Source: an uncultured Rhodospirillaceae bacterium (GTDB lineage: Bacteria > Pseudomonadota > Alphaproteobacteria > UBA11136). From it: DNA of 64,000 bases. Positions 16,639 through 40,631 of the stretch are shown piece after piece. The position numbers were made by a program, and so were the translations under genes. The first letter of the stretch is position 1; the number at the start of each line of letters is the position of its first letter. The notes under the pieces are model-generated. The model searched no databases. It had not been told where the DNA came from and saw only the letters and a program-made list of their open reading frames with translations. Location: contig CAZAKR010000002.1 of NCBI GenBank assembly GCA_964486105.1, positions 62,949-126,948 on the forward strand, read 5' to 3'.

Positions 16639-16733
16639 TTCCGGGGGCAATGAAGGCCATTGATTGCGGATCGAAAGAGGGCTCATCCCGGCGTCCCCGT
16701 TTGGGGCGTCGAACAACAAGGAAATTCAAGAAT

Positions 16734-22023: not shown

Positions 22024-22878
22024 ATGAACGAAACTTCCGATATTGAGGATATTCGCGCCCATGTTCGGCAGGTTGTCGAGGCTTCCGGCACGTCCTTTTA
22101 CTGGGGCATGCGGATTCTTCCCCCTGAGCGCCGGGAGGCCATGTACGCCATCTATGCCTTTTGCCGTGAGGTAGACGACATCGCCGACGACGATATGCCG
22201 CAACCCGAACGTATCTCCCGGCTGGCCGAATGGCGGACCGAAATAGACCGGCTTTTTGCCGGTAATCCCCAAATGCCGACGGCAAGAGCCCTGCTCGAAC
22301 CGACCCAAGAGTTCGACCTTCAAAGGGAAGACTTTCTCGCCGTCATCGACGGCATGGAAATGGATGCGAGGGAAGCCATGCGCGGGCCCTCCCTGGCCGA
22401 ATTCGAACTTTATTGCGCCCGGGTCGCCGGCGCCGTCGGGCTCCTCTCCACCCGCGCCTTCGGCGATTCCTCGCCGCGGGCGCGCGATCATGCTCTGGCC
22501 CTTGGCCACGCCCTTCAGATCACAAATATTCTGCGCGATATCGTCGAAGATGCCGAACGGGGCCGGCTCTATCTGCCGAAGGAGATTCTCGAGGCCCACG
22601 GCATCACCGACACCGATCCACAAAAGGTTCTGAAAAACCCGGCCCTGCCAAAAGTCTGCGCCGATCTGGCGGCAATGGCGAGACAGCGTTTTGATGAGGC
22701 GCTCGGCGCCTTGGCCGATTGCGACCGCCGGGCCTTGCGGCCAGCCAGCATCATGCGCGCCATATACCGGCGCGTCCTTGATCGCCTGCAAAAGCGGGGC
22801 TGGGAACGGCTCGACCTGCCGGTAAAAGTATCGAAACCGGAAAAGCTGTGGATCGCCCTTCGTTACGGCATACTCTAG
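22024..22878 (+). CDS. hpnD: Squalene/phytoene synthase family protein, second copy. Likely presqualene diphosphate synthase HpnD
   Basis: YAFCREVDDIADD and NILRDIVEDAERGR motifs. 284 aa. Confidence 0.8.
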   Translation: MNETSDIEDIRAHVRQVVEASGTSFYWGMRILPPERREAMYAIYAFCREVDDIADDDMPQPERISRLAEWRTEIDRLFAGNPQMPTARALLEPTQEFDLQREDFLAVIDGMEMDAREAMRGPSLAEFELYCARVAGAVGLLSTRAFGDSSPRARDHALALGHALQITNILRDIVEDAERGRLYLPKEILEAHGITDTDPQKVLKNPALPKVCADLAAMARQRFDEALGALADCDRRALRPASIMRAIYRRVLDRLQKRGWERLDLPVKVSKPEKLWIALRYGIL

Positions 22879-24231: not shown

Positions 24232-26172
24232 ATGAAAACCGCCGCCCAGCCTTCGAAAAACAACCGCCTCGCAGAAGTCGATACCGTGGTCAAGCAGGTT
24301 CGCAGCGAGCTGGCGGCGCGCCAGGGCGATGAAGGGCACTGGGTCTTCGACCTTGAAGCCGATGCGACGATCCCGGCCGAATATATTCTGCTCAACCATT
24401 TCCTCGACAAGATTGAAGAAGATATTGAAGCGTCACTGGGCGATTATCTGCGCGACATTCAGGGAGAGCACGGCGGCTGGCCCCTGTTTCACGGCGGCGA
24501 TCTCGACATCAGCGCCAGCGTCAAAGCCTATTTCGCCCTGAAGATGATCGGCGACGACGTTGAGGCCCCTCACATGAAGCGGGCGCGGAAGGCCATTCTC
24601 GCCGAGGGCGGGGCGGCCCGCGGCAATGTTTTTACCCGCTTCCAACTGGCGCTGTTTGGCGAGGTTCCCTGGCGCGCGGTCCCCGTCATGCCGGTAGAGA
24701 TCATGCTGCTGCCGCGCTGGTTCCCCTTTCACCTTTCCAAGGTCTCCTATTGGTCGCGCACGGTCATCGCGCCGATGCTCGTTCTCATGGCCTTGAAACC
24801 GACGGCAAAGAATCCCCGCGACGTCCACATCGGTGAGCTTTTCACCACGCCGCCGGAAGAAGAACGCCGCTACAATACAAATCCGACCGGCTCCCTTCTC
24901 GGCGCCTGCTTTCTTGGCCTCGATCGTGTTTTGCGTGTCCTTGAGCCCTTCATTCCCAAGCCCCTGCGCCGCGGCGCTATTGAACGGGCAACGGCCTGGT
25001 TTACCGAGCGGTTGAACGGCGAAGACGGACTCGGCGGCATTTATCCCGCCATGGCCAATGCGGCAATGGCCTATCGCGCCATGGGATATAGTGACGACCA
25101 TCCGGATTACGCCATCGCCCTGAAATCGGTGCGCAAGCTCCTCACCTTTGATGGGGAACGCAAATTCTGCCAGCCCTGCCTGTCGCCGATCTGGGATACC
25201 AGCCTCGCGACCCTGGCCATGTTTGAGGCCGGTGAAAAAGCTGACGGCCCCGTCATTTCAAAAGCCTGCGCCTGGATGAAGGATCGCCAGATCCTTAACG
25301 TCAAAGGCGACTGGGCCGAGAAGAAGCCTGATGTCGCGCCCGGTGGCTGGGCCTTTCAATACTGGAACGATTACTACCCCGATGTCGACGATACCGCCGT
25401 GGTCGCCATGGCCCTTCACCGGGCCGGTATGGACACCCATCAAACATCCCTTAAACGCGCCACCGACTGGATCATCGGCATGCAGAGCAAAAACGGCGGC
25501 TGGGGGGCATTTGACGTCGACAACACCCAGTATTATCTCAACCATATTCCCTTCGCCGATCACGGGGCGCTGCTCGATCCGCCGACCACCGACGTTTCGG
25601 CGCGCTGCGTCAGCATGCTGGCTCAGTTCAGCACGCGTAAAGATCATCCCGCCCTGGAACAGGGGCTGGATTTCCTGCGTCAGGAACAGGAACAAGACGG
25701 CTCCTGGTTCGGGCGCTGGGGTTGTAATTATATCTACGGCACCTGGTCGGCCCTTTGCGCCTTCAACGCCGCTGGTGAAGACATGTCCGCCCCGCATATC
25801 CGCAAGGCCGTGGAGTGGCTGAAATCGCGCCAACGCGAAGACGGCGGCTGGGGCGAGGATGGTGCAACATATTGGGAAGAACGCCGCGACGAGGTCAAGG
25901 TCAGCACGCCGTCGCAAACCGCCTGGGCGCTCATGGCCCTGATGTCGGCGGGCGAGGTCGATAGCGAGGCGGTACGGCGCGGTGTCGATTACCTTCTCCA
26001 AACCCCGCGCAGGAATGGCCGCTGGGATGAGAAATATTACAACGCCGTCGGCTTTCCCCGCGTCTTCTATATTACCTATCACGGCTATGCCGCTTATTTC
26101 CCGCTCTGGGCATTGGCCCGCTACCGCAATCTTGCCAGCGGCAACGCCCCAACCGTGATCCACGGGATGTGA
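24232..26172 (+). CDS. shc: Squalene-hopene cyclase
   Basis: QW repeats and DVDDTAVV catalytic motif. 646 aa. Confidence 0.97.
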   Translation: MKTAAQPSKNNRLAEVDTVVKQVRSELAARQGDEGHWVFDLEADATIPAEYILLNHFLDKIEEDIEASLGDYLRDIQGEHGGWPLFHGGDLDISASVKAYFALKMIGDDVEAPHMKRARKAILAEGGAARGNVFTRFQLALFGEVPWRAVPVMPVEIMLLPRWFPFHLSKVSYWSRTVIAPMLVLMALKPTAKNPRDVHIGELFTTPPEEERRYNTNPTGSLLGACFLGLDRVLRVLEPFIPKPLRRGAIERATAWFTERLNGEDGLGGIYPAMANAAMAYRAMGYSDDHPDYAIALKSVRKLLTFDGERKFCQPCLSPIWDTSLATLAMFEAGEKADGPVISKACAWMKDRQILNVKGDWAEKKPDVAPGGWAFQYWNDYYPDVDDTAVVAMALHRAGMDTHQTSLKRATDWIIGMQSKNGGWGAFDVDNTQYYLNHIPFADHGALLDPPTTDVSARCVSMLAQFSTRKDHPALEQGLDFLRQEQEQDGSWFGRWGCNYIYGTWSALCAFNAAGEDMSAPHIRKAVEWLKSRQREDGGWGEDGATYWEERRDEVKVSTPSQTAWALMALMSAGEVDSEAVRRGVDYLLQTPRRNGRWDEKYYNAVGFPRVFYITYHGYAAYFPLWALARYRNLASGNAPTVIHGM

Positions 26173-26846
26173 CCCCCGATAGCCCTACCAGAATCGGCGT
26201 CATTACCGGTCTTGCAGCCGAGGCGGCATGCCTGCACGGCAGGGGCTATGATATTTTTTGTTGCGGCGCCCGCCCCGCCCGGGCGCGGGAAGGCGTGCAA
26301 AGCCTGATCTCAAACGGCGTTTCCGGTCTCGTCAGCTTCGGCCTTGCCGGCGGGCTCGATCCGGCACTTGCCCCCGGCGCCCTCGTTCTCGCCGCCTCGG
26401 TCATCACGCCGCAAGGGGATCGCCTTGAAACAGACATTGCATGGCGTCAAACCTTCCGCCAGTCCGCCCCGGACGGGGTCATCGAAAGCGCCATTGCCGG
26501 AAGCGAAAGGGCGGTCAAAACCGCGGCGGGAAAACAGGCGATGCACGCATCAACCGGGGCGGTGGCCGTTGACATGGAAAGCCACATCGTTGCCGCCGCC
26601 GCCGAGGATGCGGGGCTGCCCTTCCTCGTCATCCGGGTGGTCGCCGACCCGGCGGCCCGCGCCATCCCGGATCTTGCGATGAAGAGCCTGGACGCTGAGG
26701 GAAACACACTCATTCTTCCGGTTCTGATGACGGTTCTGCGGCGGCCGAAAGAGCTGGCGGGACTGCTGCAACTGGCGATGGATTCGAGAAAGGCCTTTGC
26801 CGCCCTGCGCCGCGCCGCCAGGGTGGACTTGTCGGCAGAAAGCTAG
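26169..26846 (+). CDS. hpnG: Hopanoid-associated phosphorylase/nucleosidase (PNP_UDP family)
   Basis: PNP/MTA-nucleosidase-like sequence, 4-nt overlap with shc. Confidence 0.8.
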   Translation: MTPDSPTRIGVITGLAAEAACLHGRGYDIFCCGARPARAREGVQSLISNGVSGLVSFGLAGGLDPALAPGALVLAASVITPQGDRLETDIAWRQTFRQSAPDGVIESAIAGSERAVKTAAGKQAMHASTGAVAVDMESHIVAAAAEDAGLPFLVIRVVADPAARAIPDLAMKSLDAEGNTLILPVLMTVLRRPKELAGLLQLAMDSRKAFAALRRAARVDLSAES

Positions 26847-27970
26847 GCGGCTTTTGTGCCCTTGCTGCGGATATCTTCCATGGCATCGCTGACATGGGCC
26901 GAAAAAACATCTTCCGCCACCCGCGCATTTTCCAATGGCACATCCGGCGCCATCGGCCCCTCGGTCCGAACACCGCCGAGGGCGGTCTTTAAGGCCTTGA
27001 AGGGGTTTTTCAGGGCATCGGTGACGGCGGTCGCCTCATAGCCGCAATGGGCCATGCAATTGGCGCATTTCTCGTAATTGCCGGTACCGTATTTATCCCA
27101 CTGGGTATCTTCCATCAGCTCGCGAAAACTGTCGGTATAGCCCTCGCCGATCAGGTAGCAGGGTTTTTGCCAGCCAAATATATTGCGGGTGGGGTTTCCC
27201 CACGGCGTGCAATGATAGGTCTGGTTGCCGGCAAGAAAATCGAGGAAAAGCGAGGAATGGCTGAACTGCCATTTCCGGCCCTTGTTGCGACGAAAGATAT
27301 CGCGGAACAGATTGCGGGTTTTCTCGCGGTTGAGAAAGTGTTCCTGATCGGGTGCGCGCTCGTAAGCATAGCCGGGCGAGACGGTAATCCCCTCGATCCC
27401 GAGACCAGTGGCAAAATCGAAGAATCGCGCCACCTGCGCATCATCGGTGCCATCAAACAGGGTGGTGTTGATGTTAACCCTAAAGCCTCTCCTCCGCGCT
27501 TCGCGTATGGCCTCGACCGCCATGTCGAAAACCCCTTCCTGACAGACCGCTTCGTCGTGAACTTCGCGTTCGCCGTCGAGATGGACTGAAAAGGTCAGAT
27601 AGGGGCTGGGGGTGTACTGGTCGATCTTTTTTCTGAGCAGAAGGGCGTTGGTGCACAGATAGACAAACTTTTTGCGCCCCACCAATGCTGTCACGATTTC
27701 AGGCATTTCCTTGTGAAGCAGGGGCTCGCCACCGGGAATGGAAACCACTGGCACCCCGCATTCCTCCACCGCATCAATACATTGCTGCACGCTTAAGCGC
27801 TGATTGAGAATAGGATCGGGATAATCGATCTTGCCGCAGCCGGCACAGGCGAGATTGCAGCGGAACAGGGGCTCGAGCATCAAGACGAGGGGATATTTCT
27901 CGACGCCCATCAGCTTTTGCTTGAGGACATAGGCGCCGACACGAACTTGCTGGATCAGGGGAATAGCCAC
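26843..27970 (-). CDS. hpnH: Radical SAM adenosylhopane-forming enzyme HpnH
   Basis: CNLACAGCGKIDYP radical SAM motif, HpnH-type C-terminal Cys motifs. Confidence 0.9.
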   Translation of the reverse strand: MAIPLIQQVRVGAYVLKQKLMGVEKYPLVLMLEPLFRCNLACAGCGKIDYPDPILNQRLSVQQCIDAVEECGVPVVSIPGGEPLLHKEMPEIVTALVGRKKFVYLCTNALLLRKKIDQYTPSPYLTFSVHLDGEREVHDEAVCQEGVFDMAVEAIREARRRGFRVNINTTLFDGTDDAQVARFFDFATGLGIEGITVSPGYAYERAPDQEHFLNREKTRNLFRDIFRRNKGRKWQFSHSSLFLDFLAGNQTYHCTPWGNPTRNIFGWQKPCYLIGEGYTDSFRELMEDTQWDKYGTGNYEKCANCMAHCGYEATAVTDALKNPFKALKTALGGVRTEGPMAPDVPLENARVAEDVFSAHVSDAMEDIRSKGTKAA

Positions 27971-28009: not shown

Positions 28010-28969
28010 TTATGCGACCGATGCCGCAACGAGTTGCTCGGGAAGCTTGAACTGAACATTTTCGTCCTCGCCATCCAGGTTTTCGATTGCAAGATCGCGG
28101 CATTTTCGCAATTCCTCAATCAACTCCAGCACCAGTTCTTCCGGCGTCGAAGCACCGGCGGTAATACCGACTGTTCCGATACCCTCCAGCCAGAGCGGGT
28201 CAAAAGCGCTGGGGTCTTCGATCAAATGGGTATCTATCCCGGTTTCCGAACCAATTTCCTGAAGCCGGTTGGAGTTCGAGCTGTTCCGGGCACCAACTAC
28301 GAGCAGCAAATCGACCTTCTCGGTCAGGGTTCGAACTGCCGATTGCCGGTTCTGGGTCGCATAGCAGATGTCCTTGACGTCGGGGCCTACGATTTTGGGG
28401 TATCGGGTCTGCAACGCCTCGATCACGTCGCGGGTGTCATCAACAGACAGGGTGGTCTGGCTGACATAGGCCAGCTTGTCCGGGCTGGTGACCTCAAGCT
28501 TGTTTACATTCTCAGGGGTCGAGACCAGATAGACCTTGCCGGGAATGCGTCCCATGGTCCCCTCGACCTCCGGGTGCCCTTCATGGCCGATCAGCACCAC
28601 TTCGTATCCGTTGGCGGCATAGCGCTGGCCTTCCTTGTGCACCTTGTCGACAAGGGGGCAGGTCGCATCGAGAATGGGCAGGGCGCGGGACAGGGCGTTG
28701 TCGGCAACCTTCTGGGCGACTCCATGGGCGCTGAAAATCGTCACCGCCCCGTCGGGGATTTCATCCAGTTCCTCGACAAAGACAGCGCCCTTGGCCTTCA
28801 AATCCTCAACCACACGTTTGTTGTGAACGATTTCATGGCGCACATAAACGGGCGGCCCATAGAGGCCGAGGGCACGTTCGACAATTTCAATGGCCCGCTC
28901 CACGCCGGCACAAAAGCCCCTGGGCTTGGCAAGGATGACTCGCAATTCCTGTTTCTCCCTCATCGCCAA
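28010..28969 (-). CDS. ispH: 4-hydroxy-3-methylbut-2-enyl diphosphate reductase
   Basis: LytB/IspH family with conserved Cys residues, 39 bp downstream of hpnH. Preceded by a G8 tract forming the SD. Confidence 0.95.
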
Positions 28970-29188: not shown

Positions 29189-29845
29189 ATGTACGCAATA
29201 ACCCGCCCAAAAAGCCTTTTTCCCCTTATCCGCCACCTCTCCTATGGCGCCACTTTATGGCTGGCAAGGCTTCCCCTGACTCCCAACCAGATCACGACCC
29301 TTTCCCTGGCTACCGGACTAGGTTGCGTATGGTCTTATCTCCATTCAGGATTGGCCTGGCAGTTGGCGGGGGCTCTTCTGCTCGTTATCTGCTACGCCCT
29401 CGATAATTGCGACGGCGAGATTGCCCGGCTGAAAAACCTTCACTCAAACTTCGGCGCCCATTTCGACACCTTCGTCGACTGGATCGTCCACGCCGCATTC
29501 TTTGCCGCGCTCGGCTATCAGGTCAGCGTCGGAAAAGATCAAAACCTCTGGTTCTGGCTCGGCCTGATCGCCGCTTTCGGCGCCACCCTCAACTACATCC
29601 TGGGCTATATCCTCGTCGAGGAAGAAACCGAGCCCCATGAGACGGAATTAACAACCATGCCGGAGGCGCCAATGGAAAAGGCGCTGTTTATCCTGCGTGA
29701 GCTTTTCAGGGCGGATTTCTGCTTCATCCTTCTCTTCCTGACAGTGTTTGACGGGGCATGGCTCCTCCTTCCCTTAGGCGCACTCGGCGCCCAGGTTTAC
29801 TGGGTCTCGGCTTTTCATAAAGCCGCCCGCAACTTTCACGTCTGA
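29189..29845 (+). CDS. CDP-alcohol phosphatidyltransferase family membrane protein, paralog 1. Complete D-x2-DG-x2-AR-x8-G-x3-D-x3-D motif
   Basis: DNCDGEIARLKNLHSNFGAHFDTFVD motif. Multi-TM, 218 aa. Confidence 0.8.
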   Translation: MYAITRPKSLFPLIRHLSYGATLWLARLPLTPNQITTLSLATGLGCVWSYLHSGLAWQLAGALLLVICYALDNCDGEIARLKNLHSNFGAHFDTFVDWIVHAAFFAALGYQVSVGKDQNLWFWLGLIAAFGATLNYILGYILVEEETEPHETELTTMPEAPMEKALFILRELFRADFCFILLFLTVFDGAWLLLPLGALGAQVYWVSAFHKAARNFHV

Positions 29846-29862
29846 ATATTGAGAGCGCAATC

Positions 29863-30480
29863 ATGGCTGATAAAGCTCCCTGGGATCAAAGACTGGCGCG
29901 GATAATCGTCCGCCCCCTTGCCCGCACCGCGATCACTCCCAATCAGATCACAATCCTTACCCTGATCCTGGCCCTGGCCGGAGCCGCGATGTTCGCACAA
30001 GGCACACCGGAAACAGTCAATTGGGGCGCCGGCTTTTTCATCCTTGCCCGCTTCATGGACCATTTCGACGGTGAACTGGCGCGGATGACCGGCAAAACCA
30101 GCCGGCTGGGCTATTACCTTGATTACCTGTCCGGCGGGGTGAGCTACGCCGCTCTTTTCATCTGTATCGGGATCGGGCTTGGCAATGCATCTTTTGCCGG
30201 AGTTTCTCTCGGCATCTGGCCGGCAATACTCGGCTGTCTTGCGGGAGCCGGGGCGTTCGCCAGCATGTTCATCAATCTCAAGATTGACCGGCAGATGGAA
30301 CTGGAAGAAGGCGAGGCGATCGGCTATCCGGGCTTTGCCGGTTTTGAGCTTGAGGACGGGATCTATCTTCTCGGCCCGGTCACCTGGGTCGGCCTGTTGA
30401 CGCCGTTCTTCCTGCTCGCCGCCCCCAGTGCGATCATTTACACCCTGTGGTCGCTTGCCATCAGCCTGCGCAAGGGATAA
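29863..30480 (+). CDS. CDP-alcohol phosphatidyltransferase family membrane protein, paralog 2. Final Asp of the motif replaced by Gly
   Basis: DHFDGELARMTGKTSRLGYYLDYLSGG motif. 205 aa. Closely related to paralog 3. Confidence 0.8.
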   Translation: MADKAPWDQRLARIIVRPLARTAITPNQITILTLILALAGAAMFAQGTPETVNWGAGFFILARFMDHFDGELARMTGKTSRLGYYLDYLSGGVSYAALFICIGIGLGNASFAGVSLGIWPAILGCLAGAGAFASMFINLKIDRQMELEEGEAIGYPGFAGFELEDGIYLLGPVTWVGLLTPFFLLAAPSAIIYTLWSLAISLRKG

Positions 30481-30498
30481 CCCCCCCCGAGAGTGCTT

Positions 30499-31488
30499 TT
30501 AAAGGTAATCCTTGGCCTTGAACCAGTCGATGGCGTCCACCAGGGCCTCTTTTGCCGGGCGTGGCTCATAGCCGAGGTCGCGGCGGGCCTTGTCGATGGA
30601 AAAGAACATATGTTTGCGCGACAGCTTCAACCCGTCGACGGTCACCATGGGCTCCGGCCCGCCGGTTATCCGGGCAAAAGCCTCGGCCACATAAGCAATC
30701 GGCAGAACCAGATTATGGGGCAGATTGACCTTTGGGGGCCGACGGTCGGTAATCCGCGCGATTTCACCGAGAATTTCCCGCAAGGTGGCGTTTTCCGCCC
30801 CCAGCACGTAACGCTCTCCGATCTCTCCGCGCTCAAAGGCCAGAAGATGGCCCCGCGCCACATCATCCACATGAACGATGTTGAGGCCGGTATCGACGAA
30901 AGCCGGCATTTTCCCTGCCGCCGCCTGAACGATCATGCGGCCGGTCGGGGTTGGCCTGATATCCCGCGGACCGACGGGTGCCGCGGGGTTGACGATCACA
31001 GCCGCCAGACCCTTCCCGGCAACCATTTCCCGGACCACTTCTTCGGCCAGAAACTTCGAGCGCTTATAAGCACCGATCATGTCGTCCAGGGTTACCGGCG
31101 TCGCTTCGTCGGACGGGGTGCCGTCGGCGTTCAGTCCAAGGGTCGCGACACTGCTCGTATAGACGACCTTTGAGACACCCTCTTCAAGCGCCGCTTCCAT
31201 GATATTGCGGGTGCCTATTACGTTGGAATCGATGATCTCCTGGGGGTTGGGGGCCCACAGGCGGTAATCGGCCGCCACATGGAACAAGGCCTCGCAGCCG
31301 GCGACAGCCGCCTTAAGAGAATCCTTGTCGCGCAGGTCCCCGGTGACGATCTCGACGTCGAGACCTTCCAGGTTTCGCCGGTCGCTATGGGGCCGCACCA
31401 TGGCGCGGGTCTGGTGGCCGGCCTCAATAAGGGCGCGGAGAACCGCCGCCCCGACAAAGCCCGATGCGCCAGTGATTAAGGTCGTCAC
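30499..31488 (-). CDS. hpnA: NAD-dependent epimerase/dehydratase, hopanoid-associated sugar epimerase type
   Basis: N-terminal GASGFVG Rossmann motif, SDR-extended family, location in the hopanoid cluster. Confidence 0.65.
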   Translation of the reverse strand: MTTLITGASGFVGAAVLRALIEAGHQTRAMVRPHSDRRNLEGLDVEIVTGDLRDKDSLKAAVAGCEALFHVAADYRLWAPNPQEIIDSNVIGTRNIMEAALEEGVSKVVYTSSVATLGLNADGTPSDEATPVTLDDMIGAYKRSKFLAEEVVREMVAGKGLAAVIVNPAAPVGPRDIRPTPTGRMIVQAAAGKMPAFVDTGLNIVHVDDVARGHLLAFERGEIGERYVLGAENATLREILGEIARITDRRPPKVNLPHNLVLPIAYVAEAFARITGGPEPMVTVDGLKLSRKHMFFSIDKARRDLGYEPRPAKEALVDAIDWFKAKDYL

Positions 31489-32105
31489 TTATCCACGCCC
31501 CCATGCACTTTGCGATAGCGGTCAAACAGCACCCAGACGAGAAATACCGGGGCGCCGATACCCGCCGCGATCAAAAACAGCTTAAGCCCCCCGAGCCAGG
31601 TCACGGGGCCGACAATATAGAGGGTGTCTTCGGGCTCAAAACCAAGAAAGTTAGGCTGACTGATCGACCCCCGGCCGACGCGCAGTTCAATGCCGAGGCG
31701 GATCGTAAAAATCAGGGTGACACCGAAACCGGCGAGAATACCGAGAAGGATGGCGGCGTTCCCCAGAGGACCGAAGCGTTCCCCGGCGCCAATGCCGATA
31801 AACAGCGCCACATAGCCGACACCGACGGCAAAATGGTCGTAATAGTGGCCGAAGTCGCTGGTCTTGCCGGTGGCCCGGGCCACTTCACCGTCCACATGAT
31901 CGGTAAAGGCCGCCAGCATGAATAAGGCTGCGGCCCAGTTGGCGGCAACCGTCTCGCCAAGGGAGAACAGATAAGCCGCGCCGATGCCCGATAACAGACA
32001 AAAGGTAGTGACGGCATTGGGATGAACGTGGAAACGGGCCAGAAAGCGGGCCAAGTGCCGGGCCAGAAGATGGTCCCAGGCTATCGGCAGATTAAAAGCG
32101 CTCAC
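31485..32105 (-). CDS. CDP-alcohol phosphatidyltransferase family membrane protein, paralog 3. Final Asp of the motif replaced by Val
   Basis: DHVDGEVARATGKTSDFGHYYDHFAVG motif. 206 aa, 4-nt overlap with hpnA. Confidence 0.8.
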   Translation of the reverse strand: MSAFNLPIAWDHLLARHLARFLARFHVHPNAVTTFCLLSGIGAAYLFSLGETVAANWAAALFMLAAFTDHVDGEVARATGKTSDFGHYYDHFAVGVGYVALFIGIGAGERFGPLGNAAILLGILAGFGVTLIFTIRLGIELRVGRGSISQPNFLGFEPEDTLYIVGPVTWLGGLKLFLIAAGIGAPVFLVWVLFDRYRKVHGGVDK

Positions 32106-32108
32106 TGT

Positions 32109-32852
32109 TCATGTCTCCTGCAAATTGGGGAGAATTTCCGTCTCGGCGCGTTCAACATCTTCAGCAAAGTCGATCTCGATCCAGGGGAGCCCCGTTACAT
32201 CTTCATATCCGAAAGCATCAACGGGCCCGGCCAGCAATTCGTCCCTGACCGCCTCTTCATACCATTCATCCCGGCGACCGTCATCGACATAAGCTTGCGT
32301 CCGCTGGGCCAGGCGGCGGGCGATCTCGGGGGAAAATTTGAAGAAACCGACAGATTCACCGCTGGTGTCAAAGGGGTTTTTGACTTTTTTATGAAAATCG
32401 ACGAGGCGCCCTTCCTTCAGGCACAGCTTGACCGGTTCATCGCCGGGCTCGAAATCGCGATCCATCAGGAAACAATTGGCGGCGCGGGTATCGATCAGAC
32501 GCGCGATCATACGGGCGTCGTACAGCACGTCGGCATCCATCAGCAATACATCCGCGCCGCGTTCAAGTTCGGCCCGCGCCGTCCATAAAGAGACAACGCT
32601 GCCTTCGCGGAAATGGGGATTGTCGAGCCGGCGCACAAAGTCCTGCGCCCCCAGGCGGCCTATTTCCGCCTCGAACAATTCGGCGCGATAGCCGGTTACG
32701 GTCACCACCTCCTCGATACCGCAGGATTTGAGAATTTCGAGATGCCGCTGAAACAGGGTCTTGCCCCCGAACTGCAACATCGCCTTGGGCGGATGATCTT
32801 CACCCGAACCAAGGCGGGCGCCGACACCAGCGGCCAGAATAATCGCTCTCAT
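32109..32852 (-). CDS. Nucleotidyltransferase (LicC/PntC-like cytidylyltransferase family)
   Basis: N-terminal ILAAGVGARLG...PPKAMLQFGGKTL signature of sugar/phosphoalcohol NTP transferases. 247 aa, 4-nt overlap with hpnN. Confidence 0.75.
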   Translation of the reverse strand: MRAIILAAGVGARLGSGEDHPPKAMLQFGGKTLFQRHLEILKSCGIEEVVTVTGYRAELFEAEIGRLGAQDFVRRLDNPHFREGSVVSLWTARAELERGADVLLMDADVLYDARMIARLIDTRAANCFLMDRDFEPGDEPVKLCLKEGRLVDFHKKVKNPFDTSGESVGFFKFSPEIARRLAQRTQAYVDDGRRDEWYEEAVRDELLAGPVDAFGYEDVTGLPWIEIDFAEDVERAETEILPNLQET

Positions 32853-35545
32853 GTCACCTTCCCCGTTACGTCGCCTTCCGCCCTACCCTGCGCCCTGTCT
32901 GCCCGGCAGACAAGAAGAGCCGGCAGAACCACCAACGTGCAGAGCAATGCGAAGGTCAGTGAAATAGACAATAACTGGCCCATGCTCGCCGTCCCCCGGT
33001 GATCGGAGACCACCAGGCTGCCGAAAGCGCACATAGTGGTCAGGGCACTATAGAATATGGCGCGCGGTGTGCTCGTTTGCATGATGCTCATCACCGACGG
33101 CGCTTCCCTGGCCCGCAGGACAAGATAAATACCGTAATCGATGCCGAGACTGAACAGCAGGGGCACGGCAATGATATTGGCAAAATTCAGCGGAATATTG
33201 AAGATCACCGAGGCCGAACCGGTGAGGATTGCGGCAAGAAACATGGGCAACAGCACCAGGACCGCATCGGTCAAATTCCGCAGAACCACAAGAAGCAGGA
33301 GAAAGATCAGGGTCAGTGAAAGGGCGCCGGCCTGTTTGAATGCCGTCATCACGGCGACGCCGCCCTCAAGCAGAATCACCGGGTTGTCGGTGGCCTCCGG
33401 GACAATCGCCCTCACCGCATTGACAAAACGCGCAATCGCTTCATTGCTGTCCATCCTTTCGGTTGGCAGAACTTCGATCAACGCCTGACCGTCGGCCGTC
33501 ATATTGCGGGCGTAAACATCTCCCGGTAAATCTTCCACGGCGACCGGCCGGGCGTCCAGAGAGCGTCGAAGCCGGTCAAGCCGGTTGGGCAGGCTCATCA
33601 GGGCCTGATCCTCGAAAGCGGCGAGATCGGCGGAAGAAATATCCGCCGCCGGGCCAAATTTATCCAGGGCATCGGCCAGGCGCCGGGCGCTGTCTTTAAG
33701 GTGCGCCAGAGTCTCATCTCCAATAAAACCGTCAGGCTTTACCCCGAAATCGAGCTTTGCCCTGAAGTCGGCGATTGCCACCCGCCTTGCGTCGTCGTCA
33801 GGCGGAGCGAGGCGTTCAGAGCTGTCGAGGATGGGATAGAGATAGAGAATCATGTCGTCGATAATCGCCAGCTTGTCCTCCTGATCCTGGGGGACGTAAT
33901 CGGCAAGGGTGATGGTTTTATCGACCAGAGCCAGGGCATCAATTTCACCGGCCTGGATTTGCGCCGTCTCAAAATCCGTCGCCAGGACCGAGATCGCATA
34001 GGTCGAGCGCCGACCGTCTTCCATAACATCGAGAGCCGTCTGCACCGATTGGGTGGAAGGATCGCGCAGGTTCATGGGATCAAAATCAAAATGAAGCCGG
34101 GGCAGGAACGCAACTGCCGCCACCATCCCCAAAACCAGGGCGCCGAAAGAGATAAGGCGGGCGTGGCGCAGAAAAAGGACGGAATAAACTTCCAGCCAGC
34201 GGAGCTTGGGCGCAGGCGCCGCCAAGGCGCCGGATTTAAGTGGAAGAAGCGATAAAACCGCCGGCAGAACAGTCAGATTGGCGAAAAGAGCAATGAACAT
34301 GCTGCCGCCAGCGATAATTCCAAGTTCGGAAAGACCGATATAGGCGGTCGGCGCAAAGGCGAAAAAACCGATGGCGCTGGTCAGGGCGGCGAGGGAAATT
34401 CCGCCCCCGACACCGCTGGCGGCCAGGGACAGAGCCCGCTCGGCGGTGTGGCCATTGCCGATTTCCTCGCGATAGCGCAGGCAATACTGAATGCCGAAAT
34501 CGACCCCGATTCCGATAAAAAGAACCGCGAAAGCAACTGAAATGAGATTAAGCTGACCAACCGAAACCGTTGCCCAGCCTGCCGTCCAGACGAGCCCCAT
34601 GGTCAGAGAAACCAGAGTGGCAAAGACCATGCGGAACGAACGAAAGCCCAGGGTGACAATAACGGCGACCAGAAAAAACGAGAGAAATTCGGCTTTTGTC
34701 GCGCCCTCAAAAACACTTTGGAGCTCCTCCTGTTCGAGGACAATCCCCCCGGTCAGGCGCACATTCACCCCATGCTCGGCATCAAGCCCGAGATCTGCCG
34801 CCGCCTCGCGGATCATATCAATTGCATCGGCGGCCGGATTGAGACCTGAAAAATCAACTTTCGGCTGGGCGATGATAAAATGCCGATAATCCGATGGGTC
34901 GCTCTCGCCGCCGGTCATCATCTCACGCCAGGACAGGGGGATCGGGTGACCCGCCTGTTGCCGTTCAATAGTCTCGGACAGGCGGTCAAAGGCCTCAATC
35001 AACCGTTCGGGATCGGTTTCACCGTCTTTCACCTCATCGGCGGCCAGCCCCAAAACCTCGAACAACCCCCGCAGGCTCGTATCTGTCGAAAGCTTGGCCA
35101 GCATCGGCTGGGCGTCGGCAAGGTTGTCGGAGAGGTCGAGGAGTTCCTCAAGGTCGAGATAGAGAAGACCGTTGGAAACGAAAAAGGGATCATTGGCAAA
35201 ATCGATAACGAAATTGAAAGCGCCCTCTGTCTCCTTCAGGCGGGCTGAAAGAGCAGCCGCGGCGTCTTCGGACAGATCGGGGGTTTCACCATCGATGACG
35301 ATGGTGATGTTATTCCGCAAATTGGGAAAAGCAGCCTGGAATTTATTCTGATCCTTGCGAAATTGCAGTTCGCTGGAAAGCAGGTCGTTGGTTGAGGTGT
35401 TGATTTCGAGCCTGTTCACCGTGTAGAACAGCGAGGCGATTGTAAAAAGGGCGGCAAGCAGCAAAACCGGTATGGGGTTGCGCCCGATTAAATCGACCCA
35501 ATTTTCGAGAAGGCGAAGATATTTCCTGCCAATCGCCTTGATCAC
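32849..35545 (-). CDS. hpnN: RND/MMPL-type hopanoid transporter
   Basis: 898 aa, two 6-TM bundles with large periplasmic loops (sterol-sensing-domain-like RND), hopanoid cluster location. Confidence 0.85.
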   Translation of the reverse strand: MIKAIGRKYLRLLENWVDLIGRNPIPVLLLAALFTIASLFYTVNRLEINTSTNDLLSSELQFRKDQNKFQAAFPNLRNNITIVIDGETPDLSEDAAAALSARLKETEGAFNFVIDFANDPFFVSNGLLYLDLEELLDLSDNLADAQPMLAKLSTDTSLRGLFEVLGLAADEVKDGETDPERLIEAFDRLSETIERQQAGHPIPLSWREMMTGGESDPSDYRHFIIAQPKVDFSGLNPAADAIDMIREAAADLGLDAEHGVNVRLTGGIVLEQEELQSVFEGATKAEFLSFFLVAVIVTLGFRSFRMVFATLVSLTMGLVWTAGWATVSVGQLNLISVAFAVLFIGIGVDFGIQYCLRYREEIGNGHTAERALSLAASGVGGGISLAALTSAIGFFAFAPTAYIGLSELGIIAGGSMFIALFANLTVLPAVLSLLPLKSGALAAPAPKLRWLEVYSVLFLRHARLISFGALVLGMVAAVAFLPRLHFDFDPMNLRDPSTQSVQTALDVMEDGRRSTYAISVLATDFETAQIQAGEIDALALVDKTITLADYVPQDQEDKLAIIDDMILYLYPILDSSERLAPPDDDARRVAIADFRAKLDFGVKPDGFIGDETLAHLKDSARRLADALDKFGPAADISSADLAAFEDQALMSLPNRLDRLRRSLDARPVAVEDLPGDVYARNMTADGQALIEVLPTERMDSNEAIARFVNAVRAIVPEATDNPVILLEGGVAVMTAFKQAGALSLTLIFLLLLVVLRNLTDAVLVLLPMFLAAILTGSASVIFNIPLNFANIIAVPLLFSLGIDYGIYLVLRAREAPSVMSIMQTSTPRAIFYSALTTMCAFGSLVVSDHRGTASMGQLLSISLTFALLCTLVVLPALLVCRADRAQGRAEGDVTGKVT

Positions 35546-35622
35546 GCCACAATCCTTGTGGAAAAGACGTTACAGGCCCTCACAGGCTCACAAAACCGCG
35601 TGCGGAAGGTTAGAACTGCGTA

Positions 35623-36299
35623 TGGCTGATAATAAATCAATATATTCAATTGGTTATAAACTTAACCGCTTTCGGTTTACAGGCAAATTTGTTCATTCGG
35701 TTGTTCTGGTTCTGGCCGTGCTTATAGCGTTTTCGGCCAAGGCAGAGCAAGCCCAGCCGCGTCAGGTCATCGAACGGTTCCACCAATCGCTGATCGCAGT
35801 GATGAAAGACGGGGAAAATCTCGGGTACCAGGGCCGTTATGCCTGGCTGGAGCCGATTATCAAGGAAACCTTCTATCTTTCAGAAATGACCCGGATTTCC
35901 ACCGGGCGAAGCTGGAACAAGGCTTCCGAGGCGATCAAGGCGGAGGTTATCGACGCCTTCACCAACATGACCATCGCCAACTACTCGTCACGATTTGACG
36001 CCTATAACGGTGAATTTTTCGAGACCCTGAGCGTTGAAGACGCGCCGAGGGAAACAGCCCAGGTCAAAACCCAGATCATCAAATCTGACGGGGAAGCCGT
36101 CTCCTTTAACTACCTGCTGCGGAAAAACGATCAGGGAGAATGGCGGGTCGTCGATATCTACCTGAAGGGAACCTACAGCGAACTGGCGACCCGAAAATCG
36201 GAATATGTCTCGGTTATCCGAAACAAGGGATTCGACGCCTTGATCAACGCCTTGCGGGAAAAAACGGTCAATATCGCCAAAAAAGCCGAGGATTCCTGA
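35623..36299 (+). CDS. hpnM: MlaC/Ttg2D-family periplasmic lipid-binding protein, hopanoid-associated HpnM type
   Basis: Toluene-tolerance Ttg2D-like sequence with signal/anchor segment. Start set to MADNK (ATG at 35623), divergent from hpnN. Confidence 0.65.
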
Positions 36300-36430
36300 G
36301 GCCTCTCCCTCCCGCCTTGATTCTGAGCCCCCATTTGCATCCCCGCCTAAGCGTATTATAACTGTCCCCAGGGACTTCTTTTGAAGGCACCCACGGGCCC
36401 CTTTGGTCCCGTCATGAATGGGAACGGAAC

Positions 36431-38095
36431 ATGACCCCGGCCACCAAGCCCAAACTCTCACTCGCCACGCCTGCGCTTTCCAAAGCCGGCCAGCTGCGCC
36501 GTGAGCTCAATTCGCCGGAGCTTTCCTTCCTTATGGAAGCCCATAACGGCCTGTCGGCGAAAATCGTCGAGGAAGCCGGGTTCAAGGGGATCTGGGCTTC
36601 GGGCCTGTCGATCTCGGCTGCGCTGGGCGTACGCGACAGCAACGAAGCTTCCTGGACGCAGGTTCTCGAAGTCCTCGAATTCATGTCCGAGGGAACGTCG
36701 ATCCCGATCCTGGTTGACGGCGACACCGGCTACGGCAACTTTAACAACATGCGCCGCCTGGTGAAAAAGCTGTGCCAGCGCAACATTGCCGGTGTCTGTA
36801 TTGAGGACAAGCTGTTCCCCAAGACCAACTCCTTTATCGGCGACGGCCAGCCGCTGGCCGATATCGGCGAATTCTGCGGCAAAATCAAGGCCGGCAAGGA
36901 TAGCCAGAGCGATCCGGATTTTGTAATCGTCGCCCGTGTCGAGGCGTTGATTTCCGGCTGGGGGCTGGACGAGGCTCTGCGCCGCGGCGAGGCCTACGCC
37001 CAAGCCGGGGCGGATGCCATTCTCATTCATTCGAAAGAACCGACGGCCACTGAAATTCTCAGTTTCAAGGAGGAATGGGGGGATCGCACCCCCCTGGTCA
37101 TCGTCCCGACCATGTATCACGACACGCCGACCGAAACATTCCGCAAGGCCGGTATTTCGATGGCGATCTGGGCCAACCACAATCTGCGCGCCTCGATCGC
37201 GGCAATGCGGGAAACCTGCCGGCAAATCAAGGATTCCGAGAGCATCGTCGATGTCGAGGGAAAGGTCACCTCGGTGCGCGAAGTGTTTGAGCTCGTCGGC
37301 AACGAAGAGCTGGCCGAAGCCGAACGCCTGTATCTCGGCGAGCCCGAGGAAGGTGCCCATGGAATTGTCATCGCCGCCTCGCGGGGCGGCAAGCTCGGAG
37401 AGCTGACCGAGGACCGCCCCAAATGCATGATTGACGTTCGCGGAAAACCCCTGTTGCGGCGGCTCGTTTCCACCTTGAAAAAGAACGGGGTGCGGAACGT
37501 CACCGTGGTGCGCGGCTACAAGAAGGAAGTGATCGACCTGCCCTCCATCAACATGGTGGATAATGACGAGTACGGGGAAACCGGCGAAGCATTTTCCCTT
37601 TCCAAGGCGATTGAACAACTAAAGGGCGACTGCATTATCAGTTACGGGGATATTCTTTTCCGCCGCTATATCCTTGACGCCCTGATGTCGGCGAAGGCCG
37701 ATATCGTTCTCGCCGTCGATGCCCTATCAGAAGGCATGAATATTGAAAATGCCGAGCGCAAAGTTGACGTGGTGTCCTGTTCGCGCCGGTTTACAGGCGA
37801 TTATCTCTCCGAAATCGACCCCGCCTGGGTTGAAAAAATCAGCAACAATATCCCCGCCGCCGACATTCACGGCGAATGGATCGGCCTGGTTCGCACCAGC
37901 CCGAGGGGCTCTGATCTCATCCGCGCCGAGATTGCCGCCATGGAAGAAGAGGGCAGCTTGGCCAATGCCAGCCTGCTAGATCTTCTCAGCCGCCTGCTTG
38001 AGGCCGGGCATAAAATCGGCGCGCTCTATGTCGCTGGAAACTGGCTCGACGTGGATGATGCCTTTGACCTGGCTGAAGCGCGCAACTTCACCTGA
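36431..38095 (+). CDS. Phosphoenolpyruvate phosphomutase fused to a C-terminal nucleotidyltransferase domain (phosphonate-specific cytidylyltransferase-like)
   Basis: N-terminal ICL/PEPM fold with the EDKxxxxxNS motif ([13 protein letters not shown]). C-terminal about 250 aa has the NTP-transferase signature ([28 protein letters not shown]). Confidence 0.85.
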
Positions 38096-38141
38096 TGCCG
38101 CCCCCCGCCGCGCATTTAAATCAATTTTCCGGTGATTCAGA

Positions 38142-39278
38142 ATGATCTCCGCCGAGGATTTTCTCAAACCCGCCAGGGAACGTGGCTTTGATTTTTTCAC
38201 CGGCGTTCCCTGCTCGTTTCTCACCCCCGTTATAAATGCGGTTATTTCCGACCGCCGGATTTCTTATGTCGGCGCGGCCAGTGAGGGCGAGGCGGTGGCG
38301 ATTGCCTCAGGGGCCTGGCTGGCCGGACGCAACACCGTCGTCATGTGCCAGAACTCCGGACTCGGCAACGCCGTCAACCCCCTGACCTCCCTCAACTATC
38401 CTTTTCAAATTCCGACCCTGTTGATCACCACATGGCGCGGCCAGCCGGGACTGAAAGACGAACCCCAGCATGAATTGATGGGCCTCATCACCGATCGTCT
38501 TCTTGAGGTCATGGAAATTCCCCATTTCCCCTTTCCCGACGAAAAGTCGGCCGTTGCCGGGGCATTTGATGCCGCTGAAAGGGCAATCGCCGAAAAAAGC
38601 CTGCCTGCCGCCTTTATCATGGAAAAGGACAGTGTAAGGGATGACGGCCTCGACCAGCCTGTCCGGGCCCTGCCCCCCCCTGGCGCCTTTACCGATCACC
38701 GGGAACATGGCGAACGCCCCGCCCGCGCTGCAATTCTTGAGCGTTTTCTCGGACTTGTCCCGCCGAGCGCCCCGGTTATCGCCACCACCGGCAAATGCGG
38801 GCGCGAACTCTTTACCCTCAATGACCGGGACCAGCACCTCTATCAGGTTGGCTCCATGGGCTGCGCTTCGGCCATGGGACTGGGTGTGGCGCTCAATGTC
38901 GATCGGCCTGTGGTGGTGCTGGACGGCGATGGTGCGGCTTTGATGAAGATGGGGGCGCTCGCCACCATTGGCGCCGAAAGCCCGGCCAATCTCGTCCACA
39001 TCCTGCTTGATAACGGCGTCCATGATTCGACCGGTGGTCAGGCCACTGTTTCGGCCTCGGTTGATTTCGCCGCCCTGGCGCTTGCCTGTGGCTATGCCCA
39101 GGCCATGTCCTGCGATTCCGTGGGTGGTTTCGAGGCGGCCTGTACATCCGCTTTCGCCGGCGCCGGGCCGAGCCTCATTCATATGCGGATTGCGCCGGGC
39201 TCCATGTCGCCTCTCGGCCGCCCGACAATTACCCCCTCTGACGTCGCCCGGCGGTTCAAGGCCTTTCTCGCCTCTTAA
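38142..39278 (+). CDS. Phosphonopyruvate decarboxylase (TPP-dependent)
   Basis: TPP enzyme N-terminal pyrimidine-binding and C-terminal GDG...N-type diphosphate-binding regions. 378 aa, typical Ppd size, directly downstream of pepM. Confidence 0.88.
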   Translation: MISAEDFLKPARERGFDFFTGVPCSFLTPVINAVISDRRISYVGAASEGEAVAIASGAWLAGRNTVVMCQNSGLGNAVNPLTSLNYPFQIPTLLITTWRGQPGLKDEPQHELMGLITDRLLEVMEIPHFPFPDEKSAVAGAFDAAERAIAEKSLPAAFIMEKDSVRDDGLDQPVRALPPPGAFTDHREHGERPARAAILERFLGLVPPSAPVIATTGKCGRELFTLNDRDQHLYQVGSMGCASAMGLGVALNVDRPVVVLDGDGAALMKMGALATIGAESPANLVHILLDNGVHDSTGGQATVSASVDFAALALACGYAQAMSCDSVGGFEAACTSAFAGAGPSLIHMRIAPGSMSPLGRPTITPSDVARRFKAFLAS

Positions 39279-40396
39279 GGCGCGGCGCTCGTCACCCCCA
39301 TCTCACCGAGGACTGATTCCACCGCCGCGATCAGCGCCCCCATGTCTTCTGCTCCCACCTGGCCGATACAGCCGATGCGGAAACTGTCGGCCTTGGTCAG
39401 TTTGCCGGGATAAATGAAAAACCCTTTCCCTGCCAGACCAGTGTAAAAAGCCTCAAAATCGTATTGGGGATCGGCGGGGGTGAGGAAGGTAACGATAATC
39501 GGCGCCTGAAGATCATCACCGAGCAGGGTTTCGAACCCCAGCCCCCGCATACCGTTCACCAGAAGCCGCCAGTTCTCGCTATACCGCTTTCCGCGGCCTT
39601 TAATGCCGCCTTCAGCCCGGTGCTGGTCAAGGGCGCTGGCGAGGGCCGCCAGCACATGGGTCGGCGGGGTAAAGCGCCACTGGCCTGTTTTTTCCATCGC
39701 CTGCCACTGGTCGCTAAGATCGAGGCTCAGGGAATGAGCATTCCCCTGGGCGGCTTCCAGAGCCGATTTACGGGCGATGACAAACCCCATGCCCGGCACC
39801 CCTTCCAGACACTTGTTGCTCGAGGCCATCAGGGCCTCGCAGGGCAGAGCTTCGACATCAAGCGGCAGGGCGCCGAAACTGCTCATGGCATCGACCAGAA
39901 GTCCCCGGTCATGCTTTGAAACTACTTCTGCGATCTCTTCCAAAGGGTTGAGGATTCCGCTGGTGGTCTCGCAATGGACAATTGCCACATGGGTAATCGC
40001 CCCGTCGTTTAACAAGGCCTCGCCGATCCTGGCAGTGGAAACCGGTTCGTTTTCAGGCCATTTGAGGCTCAGGCTGTCCCGGCCGATCATTTCGCAGATC
40101 CGCGCCATACGCGCACCATAAGCCCCGTTTTCGAGAATCAGCAACTTGCCCTCCCGGGGCACCAGGGTGCCGATAGCGGCCTCGACGGCAAAGGTGCCGC
40201 TGCCCTGAACCGGCACACAGCCATGGGTCTCGCCGCCCCCGGCCAAAGCGGTCAGCCTCGCCAGCAATCCGGCATTGAGGGCGATAAAATCCCTGTCCCG
40301 TGAGCCATAATCACGCTGCATCGCCTCGCGGGTCCGCCGCGCGGTGGTCAGGGGACCGGGGGTCAAGAGCAGGGGGTCACGTGGCGGAGCGGTCAT
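39275..40396 (-). CDS. 2-aminoethylphosphonate:pyruvate aminotransferase (class V PLP aminotransferase, PhnW/AepZ-like). Start 40396 or 40435
   Basis: LLTPGPLTT N-terminus and class-V aminotransferase sequence. Convergent with ppd, overlapping stops. Confidence 0.8.
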   Translation of the reverse strand: MTAPPRDPLLLTPGPLTTARRTREAMQRDYGSRDRDFIALNAGLLARLTALAGGGETHGCVPVQGSGTFAVEAAIGTLVPREGKLLILENGAYGARMARICEMIGRDSLSLKWPENEPVSTARIGEALLNDGAITHVAIVHCETTSGILNPLEEIAEVVSKHDRGLLVDAMSSFGALPLDVEALPCEALMASSNKCLEGVPGMGFVIARKSALEAAQGNAHSLSLDLSDQWQAMEKTGQWRFTPPTHVLAALASALDQHRAEGGIKGRGKRYSENWRLLVNGMRGLGFETLLGDDLQAPIIVTFLTPADPQYDFEAFYTGLAGKGFFIYPGKLTKADSFRIGCIGQVGAEDMGALIAAVESVLGEMGVTSAAP

Positions 40397-40631
40397 CGGT
40401 TTTCCATATAAAGAAGGAAATAATCTGGACACCACCGGACCTTAAATTCTCACCCCGGGGGAAATCAATGGGCAGAGTCAGATTACCGTGGCCCGCCGGT
40501 AAGAAAAAGCCAAACAGATATCCCTCTTAATTGTAATGATATTAAACTGGTTTTCCTTTGCGTTATGGAGAAAACAAGCCATTATAACCTATAAAAATAG
40601 ATGGTTATTTGCTGGAATGGAGGGCTGGCAA

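Follow-up and report, generated by a model that had tools for sequence, protein, structure and literature searches.

A stretch of 64,000 nucleotides from an uncultured marine Rhodospirillaceae bacterium (contig CAZAKR010000002.1; hereafter the window) carries a hopanoid cluster in which genes for the synthesis of 2-aminoethylphosphonate (AEP), two nucleotidyltransferases (NTases) and three CDP-alcohol phosphotransferases (T1, T2 and T3) are interleaved with hpnA, hpnN and hpnM, with shc, hpnG and hpnH adjoining. On the comparative sequence data, we consider it about an even chance that the 'Group 1 phosphonolipid' pathway is present here in a form embedded among hopanoid genes, the likeliest product being an ester of AEP or hydroxy-AEP with a bacteriohopanepolyol. 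An earlier note on this DNA had proposed that an AEP head group is installed here on a lipid. Its gene list and enzyme assignments were borne out, coordinates included: every gene is an intact open reading frame (ORF) in the ORF listing, and profile searches recovered the families (Table 1).

The AEP genes code for a phosphoenolpyruvate (PEP) mutase, PepM, which is fused to an NTase domain, for a phosphonopyruvate decarboxylase (Ppd) and for an AEP transaminase. A Ppm-specific motif (EDKxxxxxNS type) at residue 125 confirms the fusion protein as a PEP mutase. Its C-terminal part had been taken for an NTase, and correctly so: residues 311-430 match PF12804, with LicC (1jyk, E 5e-14) as the best PDB match. 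The G-loop of this domain reads AASRGGKLG (residues 311-325, window 37331-37400) instead of the usual AAGxGxRLG. Relatives of the fusion keep the form AASRG[GS]xLG, in which the usual Arg position is variable and an Arg is found three residues earlier. The fused domain is 25% identical to the stand-alone NTase of the window. Among solved structures, the latter comes closest over its full length to Tde-PntC (6pd1, E 1.8e-11; 1jyk follows with E 1e-9), an AEP cytidylyltransferase which makes CMP-AEP (PMC6697681), and it shares 48-51% identity with the 'second PntC' of the AEP modules from Burkholderia, Mycetohabitans, Cupriavidus and Roseomonas (L088-L092). The preference of PntC for AEP over phosphocholine and phosphoethanolamine is set by a small pocket; the window NTases are assigned at the level of family similarity.

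The hopanoid genes shc, hpnH, hpnG, hpnC, hpnD, hpnE, hpnA, hpnN and hpnM all score above the curated NCBIfam cutoffs, as does dxs. On the minus strand, hpnN, the gene for the 247-residue stand-alone NTase, T3 and hpnA form a single tightly packed unit. As read from the sequence, the hpnN stop and the NTase start overlap in ATGA, T3 follows the NTase gene after a gap of 3 nt, and the T3 stop and the hpnA start overlap in GTGA, again by 4 nt. The overlaps support the earlier claim of co-transcription with hopanoid genes. T1 and T2 are divergently placed, beside ispH.

To place the locus among its relatives, a T-family alignment was scanned against one genome per species (GTDB), and the resulting 79 loci, all from metagenome-assembled genomes (MAGs), were searched with the window proteins by tblastn. 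They span Alphaproteobacteria, Gammaproteobacteria, Nitrospinae and Rokubacteria/Methylomirabilota; the window's own genome is not among them, and the best match is 62% identical. At least one of hpnA, hpnN, hpnH, shc and hpnG occurs within 10 kb in 61 of the 79 loci, and the co-occurrence of the module with shc/hpn genes is supported. In 55 loci the transferase lies at most 150 nt from hpnA, and the order NTase, transferase, hpnA is conserved in related loci. A PntC-like NTase is present in 48 loci and PepM in 11, ten of which also have hopanoid genes. The earlier note had considered that homologous modules might occur mainly outside hopanoid genomes and next to glycan loci. This is not what we see: the close homologs sampled lie in hopanoid clusters. 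These include all five relatives of the PepM fusion sampled at 60-72% identity, whose clusters are rearranged; three metagenomic ones (72, 66 and 64% identity) occur in differing gene orders.

AEP and hopanoid genes are found together in the alphaproteobacterial MAGs L003-L012, L017, L083, L084 and L085, and L004-L012 and L083 share synteny. Other arrangements differ. L084 has the order hpnA-NTase-PhyH-PepM-Ppd-transferase, with overlapping Ppd and transferase genes, while in the gammaproteobacterial MAG L081 the operon hpnG-hpnN-T-hpnA is followed by an opposite-strand hpnL and then, back on the first strand, by NTase-PepM-Ppd-AEP transaminase. It is highly improbable that an AEP cassette was inserted by chance beside the hopanoid cluster of one lineage and has no pathway in common with it. 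While gene order within the window's own clade is inherited, as the synteny of L004-L012 and L083 indicates, the arrangements in Gammaproteobacteria, Acetobacteraceae and Burkholderiaceae are independent, and the transferase and HpnL families are common to both gene sets. The comparative data argue that the linkage of AEP and hopanoid genes is functional rather than accidental.

Cultured carriers were found in a protein search of PLSDB, where the PepM fusion and the transferase occur together in several genera; a megablast of the region against plasmids gave no match. On Roseomonas marmotae plasmid p1318-3 the AEP module is embedded in a cluster hpnN…ispH-hpnH-hpnG-shc-hpnE/D/C-hpnB-hpnA. On pBRH01 of Mycetohabitans rhizoxinica, genes for a transferase, a 2-oxoglutarate (2OG) oxygenase, an HpnL-like protein, an NTase, the PepM fusion, Ppd and AEP transaminase are followed by dxs, hpnN, hpnM, ispH, hpnH and hpnA. 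The PepM fusion of the window is 50-55% identical to the proteins from Burkholderia, Mycetohabitans and Cupriavidus, and T3 and T2 are 40-43% identical to the core transferase of Burkholderia and Mycetohabitans. The AEP-core transferase of Burkholderia and Cupriavidus is closer to the transferases of gammaproteobacterial hpnG-hpnN-T-hpnA operons (48-58% identity) than to T2 and T3 (38-43%). Because of this similarity, one transferase family bridges the AEP module and the hpnN/hpnA operons; it accompanies AEP genes in some genomes, hpnN/hpnA in others, and both in the window, in L081, in Roseomonas and in Mycetohabitans.

The AEP core itself contains a hopanoid-associated gene. The seven-gene core includes a gene described as 'lysyl-PG (phosphatidylglycerol) synthase domain' (LPG_synthase_TM), and this is a true HpnL, as judged by TIGR03476 (330 bits in Mycetohabitans and 260 in Roseomonas, cutoff 196). 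HpnL proteins form a family because they accompany hopanoid genes, and they have yet to be given a function (bioRxiv 10.1101/2025.07.29.667474; PMC12583986). On Roseomonas marmotae p1318-3 (L088, 18765-19754) the gene is flanked by aepY on one side and by the gene of the AEP transaminase on the other and overlaps both, so that it is transcribed within the AEP operon. For the window, tblastn found no hpnL match anywhere in the 64 kb, while L004-L009 and L083 carry hpnL beside T2. In L083 (2476-4112) and in L004, L005, L006 and L009 an overlapping hpnL-T2 pair is located between ispH and hpnA, at the position where the window has T1-T2 (29189-30480). T1 may have displaced hpnL, or hpnL may lie elsewhere in the genome.

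Extending the view beyond the transferase region revealed a further gene. All genes of the system as originally delimited are present, but a PhyH-family Fe(II)/2OG dioxygenase gene, about 12 kb from the transferases and outside the range of the earlier note, also recurs with it. By far the top NCBIfam match of the protein is NF052437, the PhnY*-type methylphosphonate hydroxylase (176 bits, E 8e-52, below the 500-bit cutoff). Orthologs with 47-59% identity are found in L020, L023, L057, L073, L076, L077, L082, L084 and L085, that of L084 adjoining the PepM-NTase gene, and another homolog (55%) occurs in L086. There is no detectable homology to the Mycetohabitans 2OG-Fe(II) oxygenase. We consider the PhyH protein a candidate AEP 1-hydroxylase.

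These components can be combined into a pathway, the first three steps of which have strong family matches. PEP mutase would convert PEP to phosphonopyruvate, Ppd would decarboxylate this to phosphonoacetaldehyde, and the transaminase would yield AEP, which the PhnY*-like dioxygenase may optionally hydroxylate at C1. One or both LicC/PntC-type NTases would then react AEP or hydroxy-AEP with CTP to give CMP-AEP or CMP-hydroxy-AEP, from which a T-family transferase would move the phosphonyl group onto a lipid hydroxyl, most likely at the polyol end of a C35 bacteriohopanepolyol. This acceptor may be supplied by HpnA, whose gene is in translational coupling with T3. The nearest characterised relatives of HpnA are SdmB and OleD, lipid-acting enzymes of the 3β-hydroxysteroid dehydrogenase type, and as a speculation it could be the reductase from ribosylhopane to bacteriohopanetetrol (BHT), a long-sought enzyme which forms the terminal primary alcohol (PMC12583986). 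HpnN and HpnM would deliver the AEP-BHT ester to the outer membrane. Where pepM is missing from the surroundings of the core, phosphoethanolamine, which is isosteric with AEP but a phosphate, may be installed by these enzymes instead. Bacteriohopanepolyol is ranked as the likeliest acceptor because the coupling to hpnA, hpnN and hpnL is at the operon level and extends over multiple lineages.

Several points weigh against this acceptor. To our knowledge, the characterised CDP-alcohol phosphotransferases use glycerolipid, ceramide and soluble polyol substrates, and never triterpenoids. In the literature that we searched, neither a phosphorus-containing hopanoid nor a connection between CDP-alcohol transferases and hopanoids has been described. 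A pepM and hopene match in a Hyphomicrobium paper was spurious, being due to 'PepMap' columns. A broad 2025 survey of hopanoids in cultured Alphaproteobacteria reports no phosphorus-containing hopanoid (PMC12583986). In addition, secondary replicons of Burkholderia and Cupriavidus carry the AEP cassette alone within ±20 kb, and L020 has a compact cassette of T3, NTase, AEP transaminase, Ppd, PepM-NTase and PhyH with hopanoid genes absent nearby.

The separation from hpn genes in these three cases fits the main rival explanation, which retains the CMP-AEP pathway but has AEP transferred onto diacylglycerol, resulting in a phosphonate analogue of phosphatidylethanolamine; co-location with hopanoid genes would then reflect co-regulation or co-export in outer-membrane remodelling. 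Diacylglycerol is the acceptor predicted for the homologous Group 1/Burkholderiales_CDP-OH clusters (PMC8942020), and the CDP-alcohol family is normally engaged in glycerolipid synthesis. However, the operon-level fusion with hpnA, hpnN and hpnL recurs in varied orders and lineages, HpnL is a core member of the AEP module, and such a glycerophosphonolipid is unreported from these abundant, well-studied genera (PMC8942020). The AlphaFold model of T3 (pLDDT 89.5), a six-helix transmembrane fold, also points away from diacylglycerol. With the structure comparison serving for fold class only, its template modelling scores are 0.78 to AF2299, 0.71 to IPCT-DIPPS and ~0.70 to phosphatidylinositol phosphate (PIP) synthases, so that the model resembles AF2299/DIPPS and the polyol-accepting PIP synthases far more than the diacylglycerol-using CEPT1/CHPT1. 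We regard transfer to diacylglycerol as possible but rather doubtful. That no phosphonolipid has been found for so abundant a cluster family fits a product missed by standard glycerolipid analyses.

Other adverse points concern AEP as the head group. In most NTase-transferase-hpnA loci pepM is absent from the surrounding 10 kb, a nearby NTase is lacking in several gammaproteobacterial hpnN-T-hpnA operons, and the G-loop of the fused NTase is non-canonical. Complete MAG chromosomes with a pepM-less core include OZ245815.1, OZ245851.1 and OZ244846.1. The NTase-transferase-hpnA-hpnN core is much commoner than the AEP genes. Because an NTase is found in 48 loci and PepM in 11, the transferases are, on this evidence, not intrinsically AEP-specific. 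The 18 hopanoid-free loci are mostly from Rokubacteria/Methylomirabilota, the others being L020 and a few more, one of them at a contig edge; that the Rokubacteria/Methylomirabilota homologs sit among housekeeping genes also counts against a hopanoid role of the family. There, T3-type transferases with D-H-V-A-A (L033, L037, L039 and others) are conserved and located beside an aminotransferase gene, ribosomal protein genes, argJ and tsf, and no hopanoid or NTase gene occurs within 10 kb. As a clue to function this context was discarded, such neighbours being uninformative.

These counts would be expected if the NTase/transferase/hpnA core added a head group other than AEP to hopanoids or another lipid (phosphoethanolamine, phosphoinositol, phosphoglycerol or a phosphatidyl group from CDP-diacylglycerol) and the AEP genes fed a glycan or a protein; IPCT/DIPPS and PIP synthases are indeed among the best relatives that NCBIfam and the PDB give for the NTase and the transferases. 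We nevertheless consider this unlikely, as the window NTase is so similar to the second PntC of the seven-gene AEP cores, which have a transferase of the same family. Furthermore, in L020 a single compact module unites T3, NTase, PhyH and the AEP genes, the L084 transferase is translationally coupled to Ppd, and profile searches of the window found no glycan genes (LicD-type, glycosyltransferase arrays) accompanying the AEP genes. A phosphatidyl-hopanoid or phosphatidyl-(hydroxy-AEP) derived from CDP-diacylglycerol is given a low rank, since in so many of the loci (48 of 79) the transferase comes with a PntC-like NTase of its own. An all-versus-all clustering of the ORFs left unassigned, intended to reveal conserved accessory genes that hint at the head group of the pepM-less loci, yielded hpnL and PhyH alone. 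In the gammaproteobacterial locus L087 (1-3860), an AMP-binding enzyme, a short-chain dehydrogenase/reductase (SDR), an acyl-carrier protein and a class I/II aminotransferase are encoded just upstream of hpnL-squalene synthase-hpnG-hpnN-T-hpnA, and resemble an aminolipid- or sphingolipid-like cassette.

The claim of three CDP-alcohol transferases requires a qualification. All three pass the PF01066 cutoff of 22 bits by a wide margin, but of the signature D1xxD2GxxAR...GxxxD3xxxD4 the full set of Asp residues is present in T1 alone, the fourth being absent from T2 and T3. We take this residue, on the basis of the structural papers on AF2299 and IPCT-DIPPS, to be the proposed catalytic base. T1 could be aligned to AF2299 (4o6m, E 5e-11) and falls into clade A together with L017, L026 and L041. 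T2 and T3 are 42% identical to each other, T1 and T3 25%; orthologs of T2 are found after hpnA or coupled to hpnL. Because they lack the fourth Asp, T2 and T3 may be inactive or have a different chemistry, which is a further point against the esterification of bacteriohopanepolyols by these enzymes.

Among 125 T-family members, the residue after D3 tends to co-vary with the D4 position (residues 90-94 in T3). For transferases that occupy the NTase>T>hpnA and hpnN>T>hpnA slots, D-L-x-x-D or D-H-x-x-A/V/G is the usual reading, and those of the T2 type, after hpnA or coupled to hpnL, have D-Y-x-x-G. Exceptions include DLAAG (L053, L080) and DHTTD (L061). The co-variation suggests a rearrangement of the active site, not simple decay, and may reflect a shift of the catalytic base to another place. 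The variability of this residue among positional orthologs bears on catalysis by CDP-alcohol phosphotransferases.

Table 1. Genes of the phosphonate-hopanoid locus, with positions in the window and supporting matches.
Feature	Position	Strand	Support
T1, complete motif DNCDGEIAR-x8-GAHFDTFVD	29189..29845	+	PF01066 51 bits
T2, 'D-Y-x-x-G' type, lacking the fourth Asp (DYLSG)	29863..30480	+	PF01066 52 bits
T3, 'D-H-x-x-V' type, lacking the fourth Asp (DHFAV)	31485..32105	-	PF01066 54 bits
Stand-alone LicC/PntC-type NTase ('second PntC')	32109..32852	-	PF12804 63 bits
PEP mutase fused to PF12804 NTase domain, 554 aa	36431..38095	+	TIGR02320 386 bits (cutoff 320); 1m1b E 5e-123
Phosphonopyruvate decarboxylase (Ppd)	38142..39278	+	TIGR03297 427 bits
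2-Aminoethylphosphonate:pyruvate transaminase	39275..40396	-	PRK13479 544 bits; 373-aa gene call from identical contig
PhyH-family Fe(II)/2OG dioxygenase, PhnY*-like	16650..17501	+	PF05721 107 bits
hpnA, extended SDR of unknown function	30499..31488	-	TIGR03466 508 bits
hpnN, RND (resistance-nodulation-division) hopanoid exporter	32849..35545	-	TIGR03480 968 bits
hpnM, MlaC-like periplasmic lipid-binding protein	35622..36299	+	TIGR03481 198 bits, PF05494
hpnC, squalene synthase	19000..19866	+	TIGR03464 291 bits (cutoff 250)
dxs	20053..21972	+	TIGR00204 830 bits
hpnD	22024..22878	+	TIGR03465 354 bits
hpnE	22883..24166	+	TIGR03467 373 bits
shc, squalene-hopene cyclase	24232..26172	+	TIGR01507 817 bits
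hpnG	26169..26846	+	TIGR03468 220 bits
hpnH, adenosylhopane synthase	26843..27970	-	TIGR03470 570 bits
ispH	28010..28969	-	NF002188 473 bits

Two gene boundaries deserve comment. The start of hpnM is most likely at 35622, because the identical contig L001 has a 225-aa gene call, and the AEP transaminase ORF could be extended to a GTG at 40435. Just downstream of the transaminase gene there are two small paralogous ORFs (40536-41018 and 41216-41668) that are 43% identical; one ORF of this region weakly matches a bacterial-globin Pfam family in the identical contig, and tblastn of the other fetched loci gave no homologs of the pair. A Gcw_chp family protein (PF09694, function unknown) is encoded between the PhyH dioxygenase and hpnC (17621-18541), and tblastn found no homolog in related loci. 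The region 42563-49614 consists of tetrahydromethanopterin (H4MPT)-linked one-carbon genes, which also flank the cluster in L083. It includes two paralogs of formylmethanofuran:H4MPT formyltransferase (43378-44274 and 47059-47952) together with GXGXG and amidohydrolase (fhc-like) genes.

All enzyme families of the locus are known and the cluster family has already been catalogued. What appears to be new, from the sequence comparisons, is that the T family bridges the AEP module and the hpnN-hpnA operons, that the AEP core includes a genuine HpnL, that a PhnY*-like dioxygenase recurs with the system, and that the fourth catalytic Asp is missing from T2 and T3. Going further, we tentatively propose, at somewhat short of an even chance, that bacteriohopanepolyols are the substrates on which T-family transferases form esters of AEP or hydroxy-AEP and, in the absence of pepM, of phosphoethanolamine. 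A class of phospho(no)-hopanoids that has not been seen so far would then be made by marine Alphaproteobacteria, Nitrosococcus-like Gammaproteobacteria, Acetobacteraceae and Burkholderiaceae.

The interest lies less in this window than in the comparison, which provides a coherent, widespread and testable hypothesis on several orphan genes and on a lipid class that would be new. Group 1 phosphonolipid clusters account for about one third of the catalogued pepM neighbourhoods and their product has never been found; hpnA and hpnL have been without a function for more than 25 years, and the enzyme from ribosylhopane to BHT is also unknown; and little is known of where marine AEP ends up biologically. 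These three problems are linked by the comparative data. If the proposal is true, it names the product that has been missing for the phosphonate gene-cluster family most abundant in the genome databases and gives roles to hpnA and hpnL. It would also add a source of marine phosphonate that is bound in lipid, and biomarkers of a new class. As Burkholderia cenocepacia, Mycetohabitans rhizoxinica, Roseomonas marmotae and Nitrosococcus are culturable, genetically tractable carriers, a phosphono-hopanoid is directly testable.

Among known systems, IPCT/DIPPS and AF2299 resemble the window in having NTase and transferase activities side by side, here encoded by adjacent genes, and in their soluble-donor logic. 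DIPPS uses a soluble CDP-alcohol donor that is made by a fused NTase, and AF2299 has the same fused architecture. However, DIPPS is an archaeal/thermophilic enzyme that takes inositol phosphate, while the window proteins are separate polypeptides in a lipid cluster. PntC and LicC (Rice et al. 2019, PMC6697681) share the PF12804 fold family with both NTases and include, in Tde-PntC, the nearest solved relative of the stand-alone one, although identity is only about 25% and the fused domain of the window has an atypical G-loop. Fusion of Ppm and PntC is itself typical, being found in 33% of Ppm proteins (PMC6697681). An AEP-type head group on a bacterial lipid is known from Bacteriovorax stolpii, where a sphingophosphonolipid bears 1-hydroxy-AEP and the cluster encodes an AEP transaminase and a Ppm-PntC fusion (PMC8942020). 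That phosphonoester resembles the proposed product, but its backbone is a ceramide, the gene cluster family is distant and hopanoid genes are absent.

The locus had been put forward as an undescribed system. This would hold for the predicted product, which is unreported, but it does not for the genes, which are homologous to the catalogued seven-gene core and of which hybrids have been flagged before. Such 'phosphonate-terpene' hybrids were noted for Nitrosococcus (gene cluster family 731, PMC8942020; antiSMASH, PMC7285500) and for Roseomonas (PMC8776678), with no product, and because of these remarks the idea of a phosphono-hopanoid is not unprecedented. They have pepM, ppd and aept beside squalene synthase, shc and hpn genes, as we confirmed directly for Roseomonas marmotae; when proteins were searched with a transferase from a gammaproteobacterial locus, no named Nitrosococcus protein was among the top 120 matches. 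The reports are one-sentence genome-mining remarks in which the transferases, the coupling to hpnA/hpnN and HpnL were not analysed.

The closest system is the core of the 'Burkholderiales_CDP-OH' gene cluster families (Li & Horsman 2022), which correspond to the clusters that Yu et al. (2013) termed Group 1 phosphonolipids and which are abundant, although their product was never identified and no phosphonolipid was found (PMC8942020). The window shares with it the fusion of Ppm with a PF12804-type PntC, Ppd, AEP transaminase, a second PntC and a CDP-alcohol transferase of the same family; an associated Fe/2OG oxygenase may be a further likeness. The window differs in having three transferase paralogs instead of one, two of them without the fourth Asp, in the absence of an HpnL-like gene from the 64 kb, in an oxygenase of the PhyH/PhnY* type that is 12 kb off and not of the Mycetohabitans 2OG-Fe(II) type, and in the interleaving of its genes with hpnA, hpnN and hpnM. 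In summary, the window represents, as far as gene content indicates, the hopanoid-integrated form, with three transferases and no hpnL, of an uncharacterised phosphonolipid pathway.

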